A stretch of 64,000 nucleotides of DNA, from positions 4,588,001-4,652,000 of the forward strand of contig UYFQ01000001.1 of NCBI GenBank assembly GCA_900617105.1. The letters run 5' to 3'. The notes below the pieces were generated by a model. The model saw nothing but the letters and a program-made list of their open reading frames with translations, was not told the DNA's origin and made no database searches. The stretch comes from Hydrurus foetidus (Eukaryota). Both the position numbers and the translations under genes were made by a program. Shown here piece after piece: positions 46,746-58,429 of the stretch (position 1 is its first letter; every line of letters begins with the position of its first letter).

Positions 46746-49268
46746 GTGCCGTCCAACTACTCTGACCACTACAAGCTAGCCCTGCAAGCGCGGAATCTGT
46801 TTACAGATCGCGCCTGCGAGGTTTTGCCCGTCATTGGCAAGGCTATTTCAGACTGTCTTACGGATCTAGTCAACAAGCCCGGCAGTGCCAGAGATATGCA
46901 ATACCACCGGGACGCTCAACTGGCGTTTCAGGCGGGGGGTGCTAGCTGGCGAACCGGCTTGCTGTCGGTGTGGCGAACACCAGATTCGACAGCCTCCAGT
47001 TCGGGATCAGCGCAATTTGGTCTTGAAACTACTCTCTTTGAGCTGGTTAATAACGACGTGATGGACGATCAAATCCTCGCGTCGAGGCTGGCCTTGCGGC
47101 TGCTGGATTTTGCTAGCTGGGAGCTCAACGATTTGCGCTTGCGCATTCAGCACCTGGAGCAAGTTGCTGAGCTGCCCAAAAAAGACATTTTGCGGCCTGA
47201 AATTCTGGCCCGTCTGGTTATTGAGCAATGGGTAGCGGCGAAGCTGCCGCGCCCAACCTGGGCGTTGGTACAAGACTTGGTGCAAACGCTGCTGGCCGAG
47301 CACTTGCTCGTGGCGTACCACGCAGCCAATGAGTTTTTGGTATTGAACGGCGTGATGGCTGAAATCGATTTGCGGCCTCTTGTCAAGCGCTCGCTGTCGT
47401 CGCCCACCGACAAAGTCGATGCGCTAAAACTGTCCGTAGCTGGTCGGCCAAATGGTTCAGGTTCAGGTTCAAGTTCAAGTTCAAGTTCAAGTTCAAGTTC
47501 AAGCAGGCAAGCCATGGGCGCGAGCGCGGGTTCCAATAACCGCGGTGGCGCATCGTACGGCGCGGGTAACGGCGCGCCGGGCGGCAGCCTGATACGGCGT
47601 GTAGGCGGAGGAAGTTTTTCAAACAGCGACTCCGGCGGCGACTCCAACAGCGATAGGGGCGCGCGCGCAAGCTATGGTGGAAATCGGCCAAGGCAAGGCG
47701 ATTCCATGGGTCATTCGCAGCAAGGTAGTCCGCAGGAAGAAACCCGGATGCAGACTGCGACCACGCCACTGGCGCGAGCCCGCATGCGTGCCCAAGGGGT
47801 GATGGGCACCCTAAAACGGTTGCTCACCAATCAGGTTGCTGGATTTCACGATACACGAGCCTCGCGACCTTCGCATCAGTTGGTTCAAGCCATGAACGGC
47901 GCCGCAAGGTCAAGTTCAAGCGGCTCCAGCCAGACGCTTCAAATGGATGCGCCTGGCCAGTTTTATGGTTCGGTTCACGTTGAGCAGGCTGCCAGTGCCA
48001 TGCGCCAGCGCACGGCTGAGCTTAAAAAAGCCGCCACCAGCTCAAGTGAAAAAGCAACTATTGAAATTGTTGCGTTGATGTTTCAGGCCATCTTGGCGGA
48101 AGATCGCATTCCTGCGGCAATTCGCGTGTGGTTTGCGCGGCTCCAAATGCCAGTGCTGCGTTTGGCGCTATCAGAGCCCGAGTTTTTTGGCTCGCTTGAG
48201 CACCCGGCTCGCCAACTGATTGACCGCATGGGGTCTTGCGTGCTCGGCTTTAACGCCGACATATCGGGCGGCGCGCTTGAAGTTGAGGTCAAGCGTGTGG
48301 TGCAAGTGATCGAGCAGTACCCTGAAACCGGCAGGCGCGTGTTTCAGCTGGTGTATGACGAGTTTCAAAAATTTCTGTCCAAGTTTTTAAGTGAAACCGG
48401 CGGCGCTGCGCGTGCTGTGTCTGTCGCGCAGCAAATGGAACAAAAAGAAACGATGGCGATTCAGTTCACCATCGAGATGCGGAACATGCTCAAAGACATT
48501 CCGGTGCGCGACGAGATTCGGGAATTTTTGTACAAAGTATGGGCCGAGGCGCTGGCTATTTCTGCCATGCGCAGTGGTCCGCAACATGAAGAAACGCTGG
48601 TGTTAAAGCGTGCCTCGGCTGACTTGGTGTGGGCCTCCAGCGCCAAGCCCAATCGTGCAGACCGTGCAAAAGTAATTGCAGATTTACCCAAACTGCTGCA
48701 ATTGTTGCGCTCTGGTATGACCATGCTGGGACTGGACGCAGCCGCTCAAGACGAGCACATCAAAATCATCAGCGACACGCTGGCAGATGCTTTTTTAAGT
48801 AAAAACAGTGCGATTGACCCAGCGCGCATTGATCTAATGGCCAAGCGCCTGGTGAATTTGGAGGACTACCTGTCTGACGAAGACATCGGCGACTTGCCGC
48901 TGGACACCGACGCGTTGGTGATGATGTTGGGCATTGATACCACCGACATAGAGGTGATTTCTGACGGTGGCAGCCAGCCAAGTGACGCCATGCGTGCCTG
49001 GGCGGGCGAGCTGCAGTTGGGTGCGTGGTTCAGCCTGGACCATAACGGTCGCGTGGCACACGTGCAGTTTGCGTGGCGCAGTGACCGCAAGCAACTTCAC
49101 CTTTTTGCTTCAAGTGAAGGTAAAAATTACTTGATTCAGGCGCGGCGACTGGCGGCGTATCTGCAGGCGGGCCTGCTGGTGCCGACAGAAGAAGAAGCAT
49201 TGACCGTTCGCGCCACCCGCGAGGCACTGGTCAAACTTGAGGCTAACCCAGAGCGGCTATTGGGCTAG
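46746..49268 (+). CDS. DUF1631-like protein with Gly/Ser-rich insertion
   Basis: ARLQMPVLRLAL...FF....HPARQLIDR helical core and a C-terminal LGAWF...LHLF domain. Family assigned from memory of the motif. Confidence 0.7.
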   Translation: MPSNYSDHYKLALQARNLFTDRACEVLPVIGKAISDCLTDLVNKPGSARDMQYHRDAQLAFQAGGASWRTGLLSVWRTPDSTASSSGSAQFGLETTLFELVNNDVMDDQILASRLALRLLDFASWELNDLRLRIQHLEQVAELPKKDILRPEILARLVIEQWVAAKLPRPTWALVQDLVQTLLAEHLLVAYHAANEFLVLNGVMAEIDLRPLVKRSLSSPTDKVDALKLSVAGRPNGSGSGSSSSSSSSSSSSRQAMGASAGSNNRGGASYGAGNGAPGGSLIRRVGGGSFSNSDSGGDSNSDRGARASYGGNRPRQGDSMGHSQQGSPQEETRMQTATTPLARARMRAQGVMGTLKRLLTNQVAGFHDTRASRPSHQLVQAMNGAARSSSSGSSQTLQMDAPGQFYGSVHVEQAASAMRQRTAELKKAATSSSEKATIEIVALMFQAILAEDRIPAAIRVWFARLQMPVLRLALSEPEFFGSLEHPARQLIDRMGSCVLGFNADISGGALEVEVKRVVQVIEQYPETGRRVFQLVYDEFQKFLSKFLSETGGAARAVSVAQQMEQKETMAIQFTIEMRNMLKDIPVRDEIREFLYKVWAEALAISAMRSGPQHEETLVLKRASADLVWASSAKPNRADRAKVIADLPKLLQLLRSGMTMLGLDAAAQDEHIKIISDTLADAFLSKNSAIDPARIDLMAKRLVNLEDYLSDEDIGDLPLDTDALVMMLGIDTTDIEVISDGGSQPSDAMRAWAGELQLGAWFSLDHNGRVAHVQFAWRSDRKQLHLFASSEGKNYLIQARRLAAYLQAGLLVPTEEEALTVRATREALVKLEANPERLLG
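47454..47501 (+). repeat. hexanucleotide microsatellite (GGTTCA)3(AGTTCA)5
   Basis: Direct reading. Encodes GSGSGS followed by poly-Ser. Confidence 0.95.
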
Positions 49269-51196: not shown

Positions 51197-52498
51197 TTAT
51201 GCACTCACTGACGCTGCGGCGTATTTTCGCCACTGCTGCGGCACCAGCTCAAACAAGGGTGTCGGTTCACGCTTGAGGTTTTGCTTAACGCTGCCTTTAT
51301 CGACAGTCGGTGTGTTGCCGCTCAAGTCGACTTGCGCAAGCTGCTGCATCCAGACCAGGTCGATTTGCCCGTTGGGTGCTGGCCGTGAAAAGATCAGTTC
51401 CAACATTTTTTTTGCCGGAACGCTCCCCTGATTTTGCGCCAGTTGATACAAGCGGATAGCCTCGGTGTAATTAGAAGGCACGCCTTGGCCCCGGTGGTAA
51501 CGCTGCGCCTGCGCGAAGTTGTCTGCAGCCGATTGCGGTTTGACCGCAACTGCGCTTGCGCTGCGACTTGGGGGCGGCAGCCGCGCTGCATTTTTAACGC
51601 GCTCGGCCACTACTGTGGAATTGATGGCTGCAGCGGCAGACTTGGGCGCTGCGCTTTTGAAAAAAACAAGTGCTTCGGGCAACTCGTTTAAAAACACGCT
51701 GTCCAAGCCCAGCTCAATTTTTGCATTGGTATCTCCCTGCTGCGCCGCCCTGGCAAGTAACTGCCGATTTTGCAATGGCGAGGGCGCCTGGCCTGCTGCG
51801 CTGAGTACGGGTTGTGTAGTCTCAAGCGGCGCCAGGCGTGACTGCATTAGCCACTGCAAGTACAGCGCACGCGGCGCATCGACACTGCGCAGCAGCTCTA
51901 CCCACTTGCCCGCAGCGGCAGGGTTAGCGGTCGCTTTGCAGCCTTCAATTTCACACCATGCCAAACCGGCTGGCGCTAGCGGTTCACCGAGCAACTGCGC
52001 CCGTTCAAACCACACAGCCGCATCAGATGTGTTCAGAACTGAGCAAATGCCGTGCAGTGTCAGCAAACCCATTTGCCAGGCCGCATTGGCTTGCAAGCGC
52101 TGTTGGCGGGCTTTTGAAAGTTGTTGATGTTCAGGCAACACCGTGCCGGAAGCGGAGGCCTTCAGTCGCTCCAGTTGATTCGCTGCGCTAAATTCGTTCG
52201 GATTTGCCCGCCTGAGCGGATCTGGCGCGCAGGTGGATGTGCCCATATCAGGCGGCGCAAGCCCGTACGTACTTCTAAGCGCCAATGGAGATATTTCCAC
52301 AGCCTGCGCGCGGGTTCTGCGACTATTCGCGACCCCAGCCGACGGCTGAATTTGAATGGGCGCAACCGAATAGTCTGGCGTTTGCAATGGTGCGGCCGGC
52401 AGGCTGCGCGCGTTGGCCTGCACGGCTGGCGCACACAGTGAAAGCACGACAGTCGATGTAGCGGCTAGTACCAAACAATTGAGTTGATGGAAGTGCAT
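51197..52498 (-). CDS. secreted Sel1-like repeat protein
   Basis: Signal peptide (...APAVQA) and Sel1-like units such as AAVWFERAQLLG, AAQQGDTNAKIELG, YHRGQGVPSNYTEAIRLYQLAQNQG. Confidence 0.8.
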   Translation of the reverse strand: MHFHQLNCLVLAATSTVVLSLCAPAVQANARSLPAAPLQTPDYSVAPIQIQPSAGVANSRRTRAQAVEISPLALRSTYGLAPPDMGTSTCAPDPLRRANPNEFSAANQLERLKASASGTVLPEHQQLSKARQQRLQANAAWQMGLLTLHGICSVLNTSDAAVWFERAQLLGEPLAPAGLAWCEIEGCKATANPAAAGKWVELLRSVDAPRALYLQWLMQSRLAPLETTQPVLSAAGQAPSPLQNRQLLARAAQQGDTNAKIELGLDSVFLNELPEALVFFKSAAPKSAAAAINSTVVAERVKNAARLPPPSRSASAVAVKPQSAADNFAQAQRYHRGQGVPSNYTEAIRLYQLAQNQGSVPAKKMLELIFSRPAPNGQIDLVWMQQLAQVDLSGNTPTVDKGSVKQNLKREPTPLFELVPQQWRKYAAASVSA

Positions 52499-52583: not shown

Positions 52584-54353
52584 CTATTTAGCGGGTGCTC
52601 CCGGCGGCGGGATCGCGCCGGTGGGTGCTGCCGGTTTAGGCCCCACCAACCATTGAATCTGTGAGCTTGTATAGGCTTGTTTGCCCACTGCCGAGTCAAA
52701 CGCCTGATCAACGGTTGCCAAACCTGACACCCCTTTGAGGGTGACCAACGCTGTGCCGCCCAAAATCGCGGGGATCTTGTCTGCCACGTCCGTATCTGTA
52801 GCGTAGCACCCTACACGTTCAGTACCGGGACTGGTGGCGTCCATGATGAAGCCTGGCGTGGGGCTCATCCAGTCCGGGATGCGAATAGCGTTGTTGGCTG
52901 AAATGAGCGCACTGGGGTTAGTGGCGTTGGGTAGCAGCCGCATGACGGTACCCCCCGCTTCATGCAAAAAGCAGTACATATAAGACGCCCGAGACAACGC
53001 GGCAGACAAGAAGATCTGCTCGCCCACTTCAAACGCAGGCCTGCCCACCAGTGGGTTTTCCAGTTGCAGCTCTAAACGCCTCGGAAGCGCTGGTGCCCCC
53101 AAGGCGGCTTTAAGGTACGGGCTGCCCGGCACGGCTCTTGTACCGGCGATTGGTGCCATCGTTGACGTGCCATCTGCAACACCGATAGCGCTGCCCCCAG
53201 CTGACCAGCCGACTTGTAACAACTGCCCATTGGCGTTCAGCGATACAAAATCGCGCAGCGCACGCTCATAGGTTGCAAAGTCAACAATGCCCGTCACCGC
53301 CAAACCTGAATCAGCCTGAAACTTGCCCAACGCAGTGACTAACTCTGGGCTGCGCTCGTCAATAGTTTTGCCGTCATTGGCCAAATACCCTTGGCTGACC
53401 ATTGAGCGCTGCACCAGTTTGTTGTGCACCAGTGGCGAGCCTTCGTCAAACCAGTCACGCATCTGCCGCTGGAAATCTGGATGCGTTTGCTCCAGCGTCA
53501 GGCATTGCCAGTACGGTACACGCGCCCATTTTCCGACCATTTCAATCATGCCCAAATCAATCAACGTACGCAGCGCACCGCCTGCGCCGATAGAGTAGTC
53601 TCGGCCCACATTAAACTTCACCCCGTAATCGCCGATTCGGCCCGCCAAGTCCAATCCTTGTCCCGAGCCGCCAATGATGACTTCATTGGCAGAGTCCAGG
53701 CCAGGGATCAGTGTGCGGGTGCGAAAGTCCCCCAAGTGCAGCTCTAACCCAATCACAGTGGCATTTTTGCTTTGGCTGTAGCCCGTGTCCAACCTGCTGG
53801 CCGATGTGCCCACATCAAAGCGGTTGTTGATCACATTTTGGTCAACATAAGCAATGGCACCCGACACGTAAAGCGCCGGGCGCTGCAATTGCATCTGGTT
53901 GTTGTTGAGCAAAATCGTGGTCAGGTTTTGCACCGTGTCTTGCCGCGCAATATCGACCTCGTAGTCAACGTACCTGAATGCGTGGCTGAGTCGGGACATC
54001 TGCGACAGCGCGGTGATGATCATGTCTTTGGCAGCGGCGGGCACCTTGCTCGAAAAGTCGGGTATCGATTTGCTCGTGATCAGCGTGGTGGGCAGTTGCG
54101 ACTCACGCAGCATGCGGTCCATGCACATCAGCGATTCAGAAAAACTCGACAGCGAGCGGGTCGGCCGAACAACCGGGCGATTCGTTGCGTAAGCGTAGGA
54201 CTGAAACTCCGCGTCTTTACGCGGGTTCATGGGCATCGCGCAACCCGATAAAAACAGCACCACCAGCATCGCCATGCAAACCCAAAAAGACGGTATGCGC
54301 CCCAACTGCCTTTGAAGAGCGGTTGAATGCGTGGTCAGTGTGTTGTTTCTCAT
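52584..54353 (-). CDS. lipoprotein: CsgG/HfaB-like domain + peptidoglycan-binding domain + DUF4384-like domain
   Basis: LSGC lipobox. ITSKSIPDFSSK, KDMIITALSQ, SGAIAYVD and IGLELHLGD resemble the CsgG/HfaB pattern. ALGKFQADSGLAVTGIVD fits PG_binding_1. FEVGEQI...YMYCF...LLPN is DUF4384-like. Confidence 0.65.
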   Translation of the reverse strand: MRNNTLTTHSTALQRQLGRIPSFWVCMAMLVVLFLSGCAMPMNPRKDAEFQSYAYATNRPVVRPTRSLSSFSESLMCMDRMLRESQLPTTLITSKSIPDFSSKVPAAAKDMIITALSQMSRLSHAFRYVDYEVDIARQDTVQNLTTILLNNNQMQLQRPALYVSGAIAYVDQNVINNRFDVGTSASRLDTGYSQSKNATVIGLELHLGDFRTRTLIPGLDSANEVIIGGSGQGLDLAGRIGDYGVKFNVGRDYSIGAGGALRTLIDLGMIEMVGKWARVPYWQCLTLEQTHPDFQRQMRDWFDEGSPLVHNKLVQRSMVSQGYLANDGKTIDERSPELVTALGKFQADSGLAVTGIVDFATYERALRDFVSLNANGQLLQVGWSAGGSAIGVADGTSTMAPIAGTRAVPGSPYLKAALGAPALPRRLELQLENPLVGRPAFEVGEQIFLSAALSRASYMYCFLHEAGGTVMRLLPNATNPSALISANNAIRIPDWMSPTPGFIMDATSPGTERVGCYATDTDVADKIPAILGGTALVTLKGVSGLATVDQAFDSAVGKQAYTSSQIQWLVGPKPAAPTGAIPPPGAPAK

Positions 54354-54426: not shown

Positions 54427-54849
54427 TTAATTGCAGATGTTGACCAGGTCGCCTCTGAGCACTACAACTTGCGGCGCCATCTTGAACCCTGCGCCGGGAC
54501 GTATGCCGGGGGCAACACTCACGCTTCCAATTGATTGAGTGCAGACCGTAGACGACGCATTGGTGTTGACTGAATTGATGACATCTTTTTCGGTCAGGAT
54601 GTCGCCTTTATTGCCTGAGAAGGCTTTGGCCTCATAGCGCGAAATCCGGGCTTTTTGCCACTCAGGTATGTCCGCCGTCGGGTTGATGTAGCCCGAGCGA
54701 GGCGCGGTGCCGAACGGCTGGCCTTGAATAACAACTTTGGAAGCGATGCGAACCGGATCTTCGCCGGGGGCATTTTGGGCCGCGGCAAGTGTGCTGACCA
54801 GCACAGTGCACAAACCAAGCACACGGAAAGAGTAGCAGCGTAGCAACAT
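54427..54849 (-). CDS. small secreted hypothetical protein (140 aa)
   Basis: GGAG RBS, ATG 54849, signal peptide ending LAAA. Mature C-terminus VCTQSIGSV...QVVVLRGDLVNICN. Confidence 0.75.
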   Translation of the reverse strand: MLLRCYSFRVLGLCTVLVSTLAAAQNAPGEDPVRIASKVVIQGQPFGTAPRSGYINPTADIPEWQKARISRYEAKAFSGNKGDILTEKDVINSVNTNASSTVCTQSIGSVSVAPGIRPGAGFKMAPQVVVLRGDLVNICN

Positions 54850-54865
54850 GATGGGTCTCCACAAG

Positions 54866-54921
54866 AAAAACAAAAAAAGAGTCAGGCCACTTTGCACGTG
54901 TCAAAGCGAGCTGACCCTTTT
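54866..54921 (-). terminator. intra-operonic rho-independent terminator after the repeat-protein gene
   Basis: Minus strand GGGTCAGCTCGCTTTG-acacgtg-CAAAGTGGCCTGACTC (15 of 16 pairs including G-U) followed by TTTTTTTGTTTTT. Confidence 0.8.
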
Positions 54922-54943
54922 CTAAACAAGTTTTAACCAGTGC

Positions 54944-55666
54944 TCAATGACGAGGGGCGTTGCATCCAGGGCATGGGTCTTGTGGTTCATTGCAAGCATC
55001 GTTAGATGCAATGTTTTGAATCGCATGGCTGCGATAGCCCTTCGCCAAATTGGTGATCGAGCCGCCTGTGACGTAGGTGGTTTGGGTAGAAGTACCGGCC
55101 ACCGTCACATCGCCAAAGTTGGACGAAAGATTTTGCGTGGCACGCGCATGGCTGCCAGACGCAGTGTTAGACACAGTAACGTCTGTCAGGCCCACCGTTT
55201 GCGCCGACGTGCCACTGATTCGGATGCCATCGCCGTTATTGCTGGCCAGGTTTTGCAGCGCAGTCGCGTCGCCGCCAGTGGCCTTGTTGTTTAAAGTTGA
55301 ATTGGTCATGCCGGTGTATTGCGTTGACTCACCGCTCATGCTCACTGTGACCCTGCCAGCGTTGGACGAGACGTTCTGATTTGCAAAATCGTCCTTGCTG
55401 ACCGATTCGTTGTTCATTGCGCCGCCGTTTGCCACAGTTGTTTGACTCGAAATGCCGTTAACGGTGATCTTGCCCGCGTTACTTGAAACGTTTTGCATAG
55501 CAGTGTTGTTTGCATTTGACTGATTTGACACTGTCAGATTGGTAAACGAAGCAAGCTGCGTTGACGTGGCACCAGACGCAATGACGATTTTGGCTGGGCT
55601 AACGGGACCAGCAGCCATGGCTGCGGCGGCAAATGCGCTGAGCGCGAAGAATGCAAGTTTTTTCAT
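54944..55666 (-). CDS. secreted five-repeat Q/N/S/T-rich protein with C-terminal CxxC (candidate functional amyloid / beta-solenoid subunit)
   Basis: Start MKKLAFFALSAFAAAAMA at 55666. Five ~39-42-aa repeats each ending AxQN(V/L/I)(S/A)SN. Tail ACNEPQDPCPGC. Confidence 0.8.
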   Translation of the reverse strand: MKKLAFFALSAFAAAAMAAGPVSPAKIVIASGATSTQLASFTNLTVSNQSNANNTAMQNVSSNAGKITVNGISSQTTVANGGAMNNESVSKDDFANQNVSSNAGRVTVSMSGESTQYTGMTNSTLNNKATGGDATALQNLASNNGDGIRISGTSAQTVGLTDVTVSNTASGSHARATQNLSSNFGDVTVAGTSTQTTYVTGGSITNLAKGYRSHAIQNIASNDACNEPQDPCPGCNAPRH

Positions 55667-56206
55667 GGTGAGTACCCCAAAAACAAAGTTAAAAATTTGC
55701 TTTAGGTTCCAAGGCTCCTGCAGGGGTCTTTGAACCGTCAGCGCTGTAGACATTGGTTGAGTGGGCCCCCTTTTTTGATAGGGCTTCGCTTTTTCTTTGT
55801 CTGGGACGAAGTTTGTGCCTGTGTTTGCGCGCCGCCAATCCCCGTTTCGGGCTACCCTTTTGATGCGGGGTTTTTGCAAAATTCGCTTGTGTCTGAATGC
55901 GTATTTTGCTCAGCAGAAAGAGCCGTGCCTGGCGGCTAAATTCGATCGAAAATCTCGCAATTTATCGCGGTAGTTTCAAAATATTAATTTTGTAAAGTTT
56001 TGTGTCTGGTGTGCGCTACCGCACACCTTTATTCGTCCATTCGGGGTACAAACAACGCAAGTCGGCACAAATCGACGTGACTTGTCACATCGATTGCAGA
56101 GGCAGGCAGCAAACAACCACTTTTGATTGTTGGTTTTTGCGTCTGCAATGGTGTTTTGTGTATCCACAAAATACGCGCTCATGTTGGATATTTCGGAGAA
56201 GAAAAC

Positions 56207-57034
56207 ATGCTCAGTACGTACACCACAACCGACGAAGCTTCGGTAACAAGTAAAGCTCGCGCCAATCAGGCCGCGGCGATGCCTCCCATGGGCCAGCAAA
56301 TGGAATCACTGCATCAAACATCGTTAACCCCGCGTAACGGGGCGACTTTGTCATGGCCACCGTTTTTGGTGGGGCAGGAAGCCAGGCCCGTACGCGTAGT
56401 GCTGATTGACGACGACGCCAACATTCGCCACGTGATTTCAAGCGAATTAATGGCTGATTTGCGCTGCAACCTGGTAGGCCAAGGGGGCAGCATGCGTGAA
56501 GGCCGCCGGCTAATTTCGAACGGTGAGTTTGATGTGATGTTGGTAGATTTGAATTTGGGCGATGGCAATGGCTTCGAACTGATTGAGCACCTCAAGACGG
56601 TCCGGCCAATGGCTGAGGCGATTGTTATTTCGGCGATGGAAGACGAGCAACATGCACTTCGCGCGTTTGAACTGGGCGCTACCGGGTACCTGGTTAAAAA
56701 CTCGTGGTTTGGTAATTTTTCACAAGCCGTGTTGCAGGTGGTCAATGGTGGCGCGTCCATCACGCCCAACCTGGCCCGGCGCTTGTTGCACAGGCTAGAC
56801 CACAGCCACGCGGATACAGGTCAGCACGACGCCGCCCCAAAAAAAGGGCTGTCAGAGCGCGAACACGCCGTGCTAAAAATGGTGGCAGCGGGCTACACCA
56901 GCTGCGAGATCGCTCTGCGCCTGGCCATCAGCGGCCTGACAGTCAATACCCACATCAAAAACATTTACCGCAAACTGCAAGTGAAAACTCGGGCGCATGC
57001 GGTCAGCTCGGCACTGCAACGTGGGCTGCTTTAG
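56207..57034 (+). CDS. NarL/FixJ-type response regulator (REC + LuxR HTH)
   Basis: VVLIDDD, DVMLVDLNLGDGNG, GATGYLVK, LSEREHAVL...TVNTHIKNIYRKL. GGAG RBS before ATG 56207. Confidence 0.92.
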   Translation: MLSTYTTTDEASVTSKARANQAAAMPPMGQQMESLHQTSLTPRNGATLSWPPFLVGQEARPVRVVLIDDDANIRHVISSELMADLRCNLVGQGGSMREGRRLISNGEFDVMLVDLNLGDGNGFELIEHLKTVRPMAEAIVISAMEDEQHALRAFELGATGYLVKNSWFGNFSQAVLQVVNGGASITPNLARRLLHRLDHSHADTGQHDAAPKKGLSEREHAVLKMVAAGYTSCEIALRLAISGLTVNTHIKNIYRKLQVKTRAHAVSSALQRGLL

Positions 57035-57046
57035 CCGAGTGAATCC

Positions 57047-58429
57047 ATGGTCGTAGCGATTGAGCTCTTTTTTGCTCTGGCCAGCTTGTTGCTGGGCGCT
57101 GCCGCGTTAAAGGGCTCTATTGGCGCTTGGCGCCTACAGAGTCACCCGGTCGACTACGCCATGCGGATTTTGGCGTGCTTGTGGATGCTCTATGTGCTGG
57201 TCTCGGTGGTGCAGCTGTTTTTGGCAGGCAACTCACGGATTGATTTATCGCTGTTGGAAGTGGCTGCCGATATTGTCTATGCAGTTTTATTGGGCGCGGT
57301 GGCATTTTTCCTGGTAACCACATCTGGCAGCGTGCGACCCTGGGTGTTGTTTATCGCTGCGCTGCAGGTGCTCGGTGAAATCGGGGCCGCCATTTGGCTT
57401 AACTTTGGTGAAGCGTCGACGCCGATTGCGTTTTGGATGTGGACGGCGTTGAATTTAACTGGCGCAACCGCGGTGACGGGCTCGATCATTCGGCAGGTTC
57501 GCCACACCCACAGTCGACGCAGCTGGCTGGCGCTGGCTGCTTGCGCCATGGGACTCGGTTTGTGGCTGTACGAAGCTGCCGTGCCAGACAATTCGCACAG
57601 TGGGCTGCCCGTTGCATCGCACCTGTACGCCTTGTTTTTATTCGTGATCTGGAAGCTGGTGTCACTCAGTCCTGATGCAGACCGCGCGCTGGCAAGCGCC
57701 GGGACACTACCGGTGGGGACGTCTGCCTTTCAAAGTTTGAACAGCGTCAGCACAGACGATGACTTCATTGCGCTGGCACTGCGCGCCGAGCGCCAGCGAA
57801 TAGCCTATGAGTTGCACGACAACATCGGCTCGCAGTTAGTCAGCGTTTTGTTTTCGATGCAGGCTGCTGAACAACCGCAAAAGCGGTTGGTCATGCTGTC
57901 GCTGGAGCAATGCCTGGCTGATCTAAAAATGACAGTAGATGCTTTAGACAGCTTCACTGAAAACGTCACGCAAGCGCTCGGTCGGTTGCGCTACCGGGTT
58001 CAACCCGCGCTTGACAGGCAACGCACCCAAATGCGCTGGGATGTTGAAATTTCTGCTGAACTGGAGGCCGTTCATGGCGTGTATGCGCAGCAGGTATTGC
58101 GTATTGCGCAGGAGAGTATTTCTAATGTTATGCGCCATGCCAAAGCAAGTTCTGTAAGGGTCACTTGCCGCTTTGAGCGGGAGTTCAGTCACCTGCTGCT
58201 AGAGGTGAGCGACAACGGCGCAGGTATGGCGCCGGGGAAAAACAAGCGCTCGGCCGGGCGCGGAATAGAGGGCATGAAAAGACGGGCTGCGGCTGTGGGC
58301 GGCTTTCTGCGTATTTCAAACCCAAGCGGCGGCGGGACTTGTGTGCGCTTAACGCTGCCGCTGGCGCATGTCAAAGTGTGGCCAGAAAGCGCTTTGCCAA
58401 CGGAAGTAAAAGAAACCGCCGCCGCCTGA
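57047..58429 (+). CDS. membrane-bound sensor histidine kinase (HisKA_3 type)
   Basis: About 6-7 hydrophobic segments, ERQRIAYELHDNIG H-box, QESISNVMRHA, DNGAG, GRGIEGM. Confidence 0.92.
   Translation: MVVAIELFFALASLLLGAAALKGSIGAWRLQSHPVDYAMRILACLWMLYVLVSVVQLFLAGNSRIDLSLLEVAADIVYAVLLGAVAFFLVTTSGSVRPWVLFIAALQVLGEIGAAIWLNFGEASTPIAFWMWTALNLTGATAVTGSIIRQVRHTHSRRSWLALAACAMGLGLWLYEAAVPDNSHSGLPVASHLYALFLFVIWKLVSLSPDADRALASAGTLPVGTSAFQSLNSVSTDDDFIALALRAERQRIAYELHDNIGSQLVSVLFSMQAAEQPQKRLVMLSLEQCLADLKMTVDALDSFTENVTQALGRLRYRVQPALDRQRTQMRWDVEISAELEAVHGVYAQQVLRIAQESISNVMRHAKASSVRVTCRFEREFSHLLLEVSDNGAGMAPGKNKRSAGRGIEGMKRRAAAVGGFLRISNPSGGGTCVRLTLPLAHVKVWPESALPTEVKETAAA

Follow-up and report, generated by a model that had tools for sequence, protein, structure and literature searches.

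The DNA window analysed here comprises 64,000 nucleotides (contig UYFQ01000001.1, positions 4,588,001 to 4,652,000), and the coordinates below are those of this window unless a locus is named. On its reverse strand it carries a reading frame for a bacterial lipoprotein of 589 residues, which lies among three further genes for secreted proteins and next to a divergent regulator and kinase pair:

51197..52498, reverse strand: secreted Sel1-repeat protein, the last gene of the cassette (Pfam, synteny)
52584..54353, reverse strand: predicted outer-membrane channel lipoprotein, 589 aa, CsgG/HfaB-fold domain with PG_binding_1 and DUF4384; ATG start
52641..53075, reverse strand: C-terminal β-sandwich, model residues 427-571, including DUF4384 at 441-521 (Pfam and model)
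53265..53414, reverse strand: PG_binding_1 (PF01471), residues 314-363 (Pfam)
53499..54239, reverse strand: CsgG/HfaB-fold domain, residues 39-285, with invariant Cys77 and Cys284 (model, Foldseek, hhalign)
53601..53660, reverse strand: predicted transmembrane β-hairpin 2, about residues 232-251, alternating hydrophobic and Gly/polar (model and alignment columns)
53772..53825, reverse strand: predicted transmembrane β-hairpin 1, about residues 177-194, alternating hydrophobic and Gly/polar (model and alignment columns)
54021..54059, reverse strand: short Asp99-Met111 loop at the position of the CsgG constriction loop, 11 residues versus 23-24 (alignment)
54240..54251, reverse strand: lipobox LSGC with Cys38, followed by Ala at +2 (translation)
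54427..54849, reverse strand: small secreted protein (P0122), 140 aa, with invariant Cys103, Gly133 and Cys139; candidate adaptor or nucleator
54874..54922, reverse strand: hairpin and T run directly 3' of the repeat gene, terminator- or processing-like (-24.1 kcal/mol, z -4.2)
54944..55666, reverse strand: secreted repeat protein (P0121), 240 aa, with signal peptide, five QNxSSN-type motifs about 39 aa apart and a C-terminal Cys cluster
55799..55855, reverse strand: promoter-like element 5' of the repeat gene (pattern in relatives)
56123..57034, forward strand: divergent NarL/LuxR-type response regulator (Pfam, NCBIfam)
57047..58429, forward strand: HisKA_3/HATPase_c sensor kinase (Pfam, NCBIfam)

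Elsewhere in the window, at 46746-49268 and next to secD/secF/yajC, lies the gene of a DUF1631 protein that contains a long low-complexity linker of Ser and Gly.

The stretch is covered by a pair of contigs from an independent run, possibly of the same study as the source, without a single differing letter, and 830 homologues of similar length were found among 7,995 scored candidates. The lipoprotein reading frame is therefore no assembly artefact; the observation is genuine and the gene conserved. All sequence features on which the original prediction was built are present in the translation: the lipobox and the motifs beginning with ITSK (from residue 92), DMIITALSQ (110-118), YVSGAIAYVD (162-171), FDVGT..YSQS (179-195) and IGLELHLGD (201-209). 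The lipobox cysteine is kept in 117 of 127 rows of the family alignment, only one of these 117 having Asp at the +2 position. Sorting of lipoproteins is read from this residue (the Lol rule), and the alanine found here therefore makes sorting to the outer membrane likely. The peptidoglycan-binding unit and the DUF4384-like β-sandwich proposed for the C-terminal half could be recovered as well: PG_binding_1 (E 1.4e-5, 25.6 bits) and DUF4384 (PF14326; E 9.6e-12, 45.3 bits) exceed their Pfam cut-offs of 23 and 27, respectively, and the model shows the sandwich, in which Cys461 and Cys516 are invariant, behind a low-confidence linker at about residues 385-420. PG_binding_1 is a domain of the cell-wall-binding type and may, judging from its sequence, bind the wall here too. 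A 50%-identity library contains 216 representatives of the lipoprotein at E<=1e-30; its relatives at 79-95% identity are labelled Polaromonas and, in one case, Variovorax. A search for shorter forms yielded 81 proteins, mainly singletons on short contigs, which we read as fragments, and atlas look-ups returned unnamed or 'adhesin' clusters only.

Single-sequence searches of Pfam, NCBIfam and the PDB (phmmer) gave no match at cut-off for the first 300 residues; the full lipoprotein does not reach the gathering score of Pfam CsgG (PF03783), and its 11.6 bits against HfaB (NCBIfam NF037935) are below the cut-off of 300. A model of the N-terminal domain was built from 127 sequences (pLDDT 84), and all its best matches among solved structures are CsgG (Foldseek, E 8.9e-12), the first other fold following at 6.6e-4. 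Profile comparison (hhalign), which had been put forward as a check of the proposed CsgG/HfaB similarity, indeed found it: the family aligns with HfaB at 98.2% probability over 226 columns, taking in the lipobox region and a shared cysteine, and with CsgG at 94.5% over 175 columns. Together, these results support CsgG/HfaB ancestry of the N-terminal domain and thus a distant kinship with the pore that secretes curli. The proposal had also hinged on membrane-spanning β-hairpins, and the model contains two long ones (strands 161-209 and 214-254), which align with the barrel strands of CsgG and are of similar length. In CsgG, nine subunits build a barrel of 36 strands. In the family alignment, hydrophobic and Gly/polar columns alternate at about 177-194 and 232-251, and we predict two amphipathic transmembrane β-hairpins per subunit. 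The family departs from CsgG in the Asp99-Met111 loop, which is 11 residues long in 118 of the 127 rows of the family, compared to 23-24 in 24 of 26 CsgG rows and 19-20 in all 15 HfaB rows. In CsgG, the ~12 Å constriction has its Tyr, Asn and Phe rings on this loop, as described in the accessible text of PMC7304575; such a constriction loop is absent from the lipoprotein family alignment. A lipoprotein ring, if formed, would therefore likely lack the CsgG eyelet, suggesting a wider lumen and gating by another part. A wider lumen would fit a subunit with layers of 39 rather than 23 residues.

In Comamonadaceae genomes the cassette has a fixed order of Q/N/S-repeat protein, small secreted protein, lipoprotein and Sel1 protein. 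In the best 80 of 285 GTDB loci, for which synteny was counted, the repeat gene (73/73), the small gene (76/76) and the Sel1 gene (78/78) were present wherever the DNA sufficed, and the LuxR-type regulator and the kinase were found in 67/80 and 64/80 loci; since these loci are kin and were gathered through their similarity, the counts express conservation and not independent trials. Of 41 whole genomes, six contain the repeat gene, all of them among the seven with the lipoprotein, and none of the other 34 does; the seventh lipoprotein genome, an assembly that is 83% complete, yielded fragments only. Carriers are common in Comamonadaceae, including Polaromonas, Acidovorax, Comamonas, Ottowia and Diaphorobacter. 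A phylum-wide sample contained lipoprotein matches in 20 of 401 genomes, at 24 places, of which 20 were examined and 15 of these lie outside the Comamonadaceae. At ten of the 15 loci, secreted repeat ORFs stand beside the lipoprotein gene, two are cut by contig ends, and at three no repeat ORF was seen there. The distant repeat ORFs have a period of mainly 35-38 residues; eight of 14 scored better against the family repeat profile than all 50 shuffles, two of them marginally, the scores of the other six were equalled by shuffles, and a profile of a single repeat recognised just one of the 14.

Several loci vary this arrangement. At L084, L087 and L088, as well as at L091-L095, L097 and L103, two or three tandem repeat-protein genes stand ahead of the channel gene, recalling major and minor subunits; at L089 (8952-9542) the repeat-protein gene is divergent from the channel gene, not in line with it. 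In distant families (L090-L093, L095, L101, L103) the channel gene is followed by an OmpA-domain gene, assigned by Pfam for L091, a second wall-binding module. Three Comamonadaceae genomes encode a second, shorter channel paralogue of 390-420 residues (L104:7998-13851, L105:7783-13490 and L106:3980-12107) with no match to PG_binding_1 or DUF4384. It adjoins a protein of ~1,200 residues that is rich in N, G, A, S and V and belongs to no Pfam family, and genes for a small secreted, a Sel1-like and an OmpA-like protein are also nearby; these loci may represent a sister system whose substrate is a giant solenoid. Near the lipoprotein homologues of L099, L100 and L107 no repeat ORF was seen, and by eye a caspase-like-looking secreted gene lies upstream of the homologue in L100; the lipoprotein fold may serve other cargo at these loci.

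The intergenic DNA is conserved in part. Of 75 loci, 48 have a stable hairpin (z<-2) behind the repeat gene, compared to 3/75 and 4/75 for the two genes that come next, a pattern that would be expected of a subunit produced in surplus. The promoter-like element at 55799-55855 lies about 120-150 bases 5' of the repeat gene. Its pattern ATT-N21-23-ANACT-N5-7-GAC, which was chosen by eye, is present in 38 of 67 loci, whereas 20 shuffles gave 0-1; the window's own copy has a spacer of 8 and misses the strict pattern. The upstream TA.C..N8..GATT part may be a response-regulator binding site. A generic scan for promoters and terminators stayed at chance level, and a riboswitch 5' of the repeat gene was considered and dropped, as Rfam gave no meaningful match.

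The original prediction pictured an outer-membrane secretion channel with a built-in wall anchor and an adaptor domain, DUF4384, in place of a CsgE-like partner. CsgG/HfaB ancestry, the predicted hairpins and the PG-binding-type domain speak for the channel and its anchor, but the replacement of CsgE is not supported. A fused DUF4384 that caps the periplasmic mouth and hands over the substrate would be compatible with the fibre-channel reading that we favour below. In the accessible text of PMC12822426, CsgE binds the periplasmic C-terminal helices of CsgG and caps that side; the C-terminal side of CsgG faces the periplasm, while CsgF lines the lumen (also in the available part of PMC7304575), and it is on the periplasmic side that DUF4384 is fused. 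The domain is kept in all 90 full-length homologues that were aligned and scanned (PG_binding_1 in 74 of them), and the cassette contains no CsgE-like gene. However, the CsgE profile matches the family profile at a probability of only 0.5% (hhalign), the paralogues of L104-L106 stand beside other repeat proteins without having a DUF4384, many curli operons themselves lack CsgE according to PMC12822426, and the Sel1 protein is just as plausible for this role. Because DUF4384 would sit on the periplasmic side, we keep a functional analogy to CsgE as a tentative, rather doubtful possibility. The DUF4384 papers found did not concern secretion, judged by their listings. Other curli components were equally sought: Curlin repeats and CsgF (PF10614) occur in none of five carrier genomes, and three of these five have no other Pfam CsgG. 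The small secreted protein shows no similarity to the CsgF and CsgE profiles, all csgE/csgF comparisons giving 0.5-8.5% (hhalign), and the idea that it is a permuted rung of the repeat protein was not supported (15.7%).

As HfaB is the closest profile to the N-terminal domain, we considered an anchor like that of the Caulobacter holdfast, with the lipoprotein exporting and retaining a short protein complex, not a fibre, by which another adhesin or a polysaccharide is attached to the cell. This would agree with the weak matches of 62 of the 90 homologues to NF037935 (best E 1.3e-10), compared to 13/90 for Pfam CsgG (E<=0.01), and with the export of SDS-resistant, amyloid-like HfaA/HfaD by HfaB that the accessible part of 10.1101/2022.07.20.500906 describes. 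Yet the lipoprotein falls far short of the HfaB cut-off. In a quick tree of 31 family rows (every third row), 15 HfaB and 26 CsgG-profile rows, with nine near-duplicates thinned, long branches and groups chosen by top score, the family stands next to CsgG and HfaB as a separate branch (SH-aLRT 100) and is not nested inside HfaB. Moreover, no hfaA/hfaD-like or polysaccharide genes were seen by eye in the flanks of the cassette in the window, and the hairpin 3' of the repeat gene suits a bulk subunit. We therefore consider an HfaB-type anchor unlikely.

The neighbouring genes supply a likely substrate. The repeat-protein family comprises 56 homologues with a signal peptide, 2-7 QNxSSN-type motifs at a modal spacing of 39 residues and no other domain; a C-terminal Cys motif is found in 71 of 79 ORFs. 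The protein has no convincing Pfam family, and none of 38 members matches Curlin_rpt. Its model is all-β (pLDDT 86.7 for the best of five, built from a 38-row alignment, with two of the five below 61). Among 48,161 solved chains, the E. coli CsgA fibril matches it best, at Z 11.8 and an rmsd of 1.9 over 110 of 111 residues, a score that falls below the Z of up to ~13 which can arise among repeat folds with this tool; the next-best chain reaches 8.8. The five rungs of CsgA span residues 42-220 of the model, and this spread suggests that each 39-residue repeat makes up one fibre layer and has an extra arch. Curlin patterns are at or below the shuffled level in the repeat protein, and the FapC core motifs GNxGxN and NxQN occur in 0% of 206 repeat units; a loose N-x-G-x5-6-G-x3-4-Q spacing, a pattern chosen post hoc, is found in 76% of them. 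FapC, which has a Greek-key fold, was the top Foldseek row at an E of only 0.083 and is not among the top 50 structural matches listed; CsgA was preferred over it as the closest fold. From its model, we predict the repeat protein to be a β-solenoid and probably a fibre subunit.

β-Solenoid folds are common among monomeric proteins, and the channel could instead export a repeat protein that stays monomeric, either soluble or capped, is of the adhesin or ice-binding type and does not polymerise. Antifreeze and ice-binding proteins are indeed among the structural matches (Z 5.6-6.7), and the C-terminal Cys cluster could cap the solenoid. However, CsgA stands 3 Z units above all other matches, tandem paralogues in three loci recall major and minor subunits, and repeat number varies in the absence of any other domain, as in curlins, for which the accessible text of PMC10192328 describes a motif basis and a variable number of repeats. 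A monomeric solenoid thus appears decidedly improbable. Least probable of all, in our estimate barely a candidate, is that the lipoprotein forms no channel but a periplasmic, wall-bound ring or scaffold of the TolB_N/FlgT/PelC/LpoB-like fold group: such folds are among the weaker matches of the N-terminal model (E 2e-3 to 7e-3), the PG-binding domain and OmpA-like neighbours indicate envelope anchoring and the constriction loop is absent, but the hairpins match CsgG barrel strands with strict amphipathic alternation and the CsgG match is eight orders of magnitude better.

We therefore regard the lipoprotein as probably the wall-tethered channel in the outer membrane for a fibre system that resembles curli (type VIII-like) and has no name so far; its conserved cassette likely serves to export an amyloid-like surface fibre of a new kind. 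What has been computed is the fold, the hairpins and the gene order, and from these we infer ring, pore, export, polymer or amyloid formation and wall binding. In the mechanism we propose, the CsgG/HfaB-fold lipoprotein likely assembles into a β-barrel ring in the outer membrane. The repeat protein, encoded two genes upstream, would cross the inner membrane by Sec, thread through the ring in an unfolded state and polymerise outside, where it is predicted to stack into a curli-like cross-β surface fibre. The small secreted protein would act as a CsgF/CsgB-like adaptor or nucleator, the periplasm-facing PG_binding_1 domain would tether the ring and its attached fibre to the wall, and DUF4384 and the Sel1 protein may serve as periplasmic modules for substrate handling or as scaffolds. 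The divergent regulator and kinase would control the conserved promoter, and the hairpin 3' of the repeat gene would raise the output of the subunit over that of the channel.

To our knowledge, curli and Fap are the only established secreted amyloid systems of Gram-negative bacteria. The system described here resembles curli in its CsgG-fold lipoprotein with two predicted barrel hairpins, in a secreted, Q/N-rich repeat protein that is encoded next to it and whose solenoid model is like CsgA, and in having a small secreted accessory gene and a divergent LuxR-family regulator. It differs from curli in a channel that is fused to PG_binding_1 and DUF4384 and lacks the constriction loop, in a subunit repeat of ~39 residues without N-x5-Q, where the curlin repeat has ~23, and in a cassette without CsgE/CsgF similarity that adds a Sel1 gene and a sensor kinase. 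With HfaB it shares the N-terminal Cys-bearing helix and a shortened constriction-region loop, but it has extra C-terminal domains and other neighbours, and is found in Comamonadaceae as opposed to Caulobacterales. FapC has a C-terminal CxxC, and C-terminal cysteines are found here as well. The repeat length is also that of FapC, which has 38-39 residues per layer and a core repeat motif according to the available text of PMC12392863; unlike in Fap, however, the 2-7 repeats are contiguous instead of three with linkers, and the channel is of the CsgG type, not FapF. In short, the system would work like curli and HfaB, but it falls outside CsgG by score and constriction loop, outside HfaB by score and tree, outside curli by repeat and accessories, and outside Fap by motif. 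CsgG itself exports amyloid-like proteins, as stated in the accessible text of PMC7304575.

We lean towards the view that the cassette represents a third family of Gram-negative functional amyloids, combining layers of Fap length (39 residues) on a CsgA-like core with a constriction-less, wall-tethered pore of the CsgG type and lineage-specific subunits across Pseudomonadota, and that it has been missed by surveys based on curli and Fap profiles. A recent GTDB survey of curli and Fap (PMC12822426) relies on the profiles of those systems. The literature, covered in part by title and the start of the abstract, with subscription papers and supplements outside this scope, does not describe the cassette, although a mention in a survey table is possible; a fibre-system channel with this new subunit family is thus apparently undescribed so far. 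As a natural relative of CsgG with a putatively wide lumen, the lipoprotein could be of use in nanopore sensing, while amyloid materials would gain a new subunit architecture from the repeat protein. For the biology of secretion, the lipoprotein provides a natural case in which to study how a pore of the CsgG type functions when the constriction is missing. Although curli and Fap profiles do not see it, the cassette is common in Comamonadaceae and was met in 20 of the 401 genomes sampled across the phylum, and it could therefore be the missing fibre component of its carriers' biofilms.
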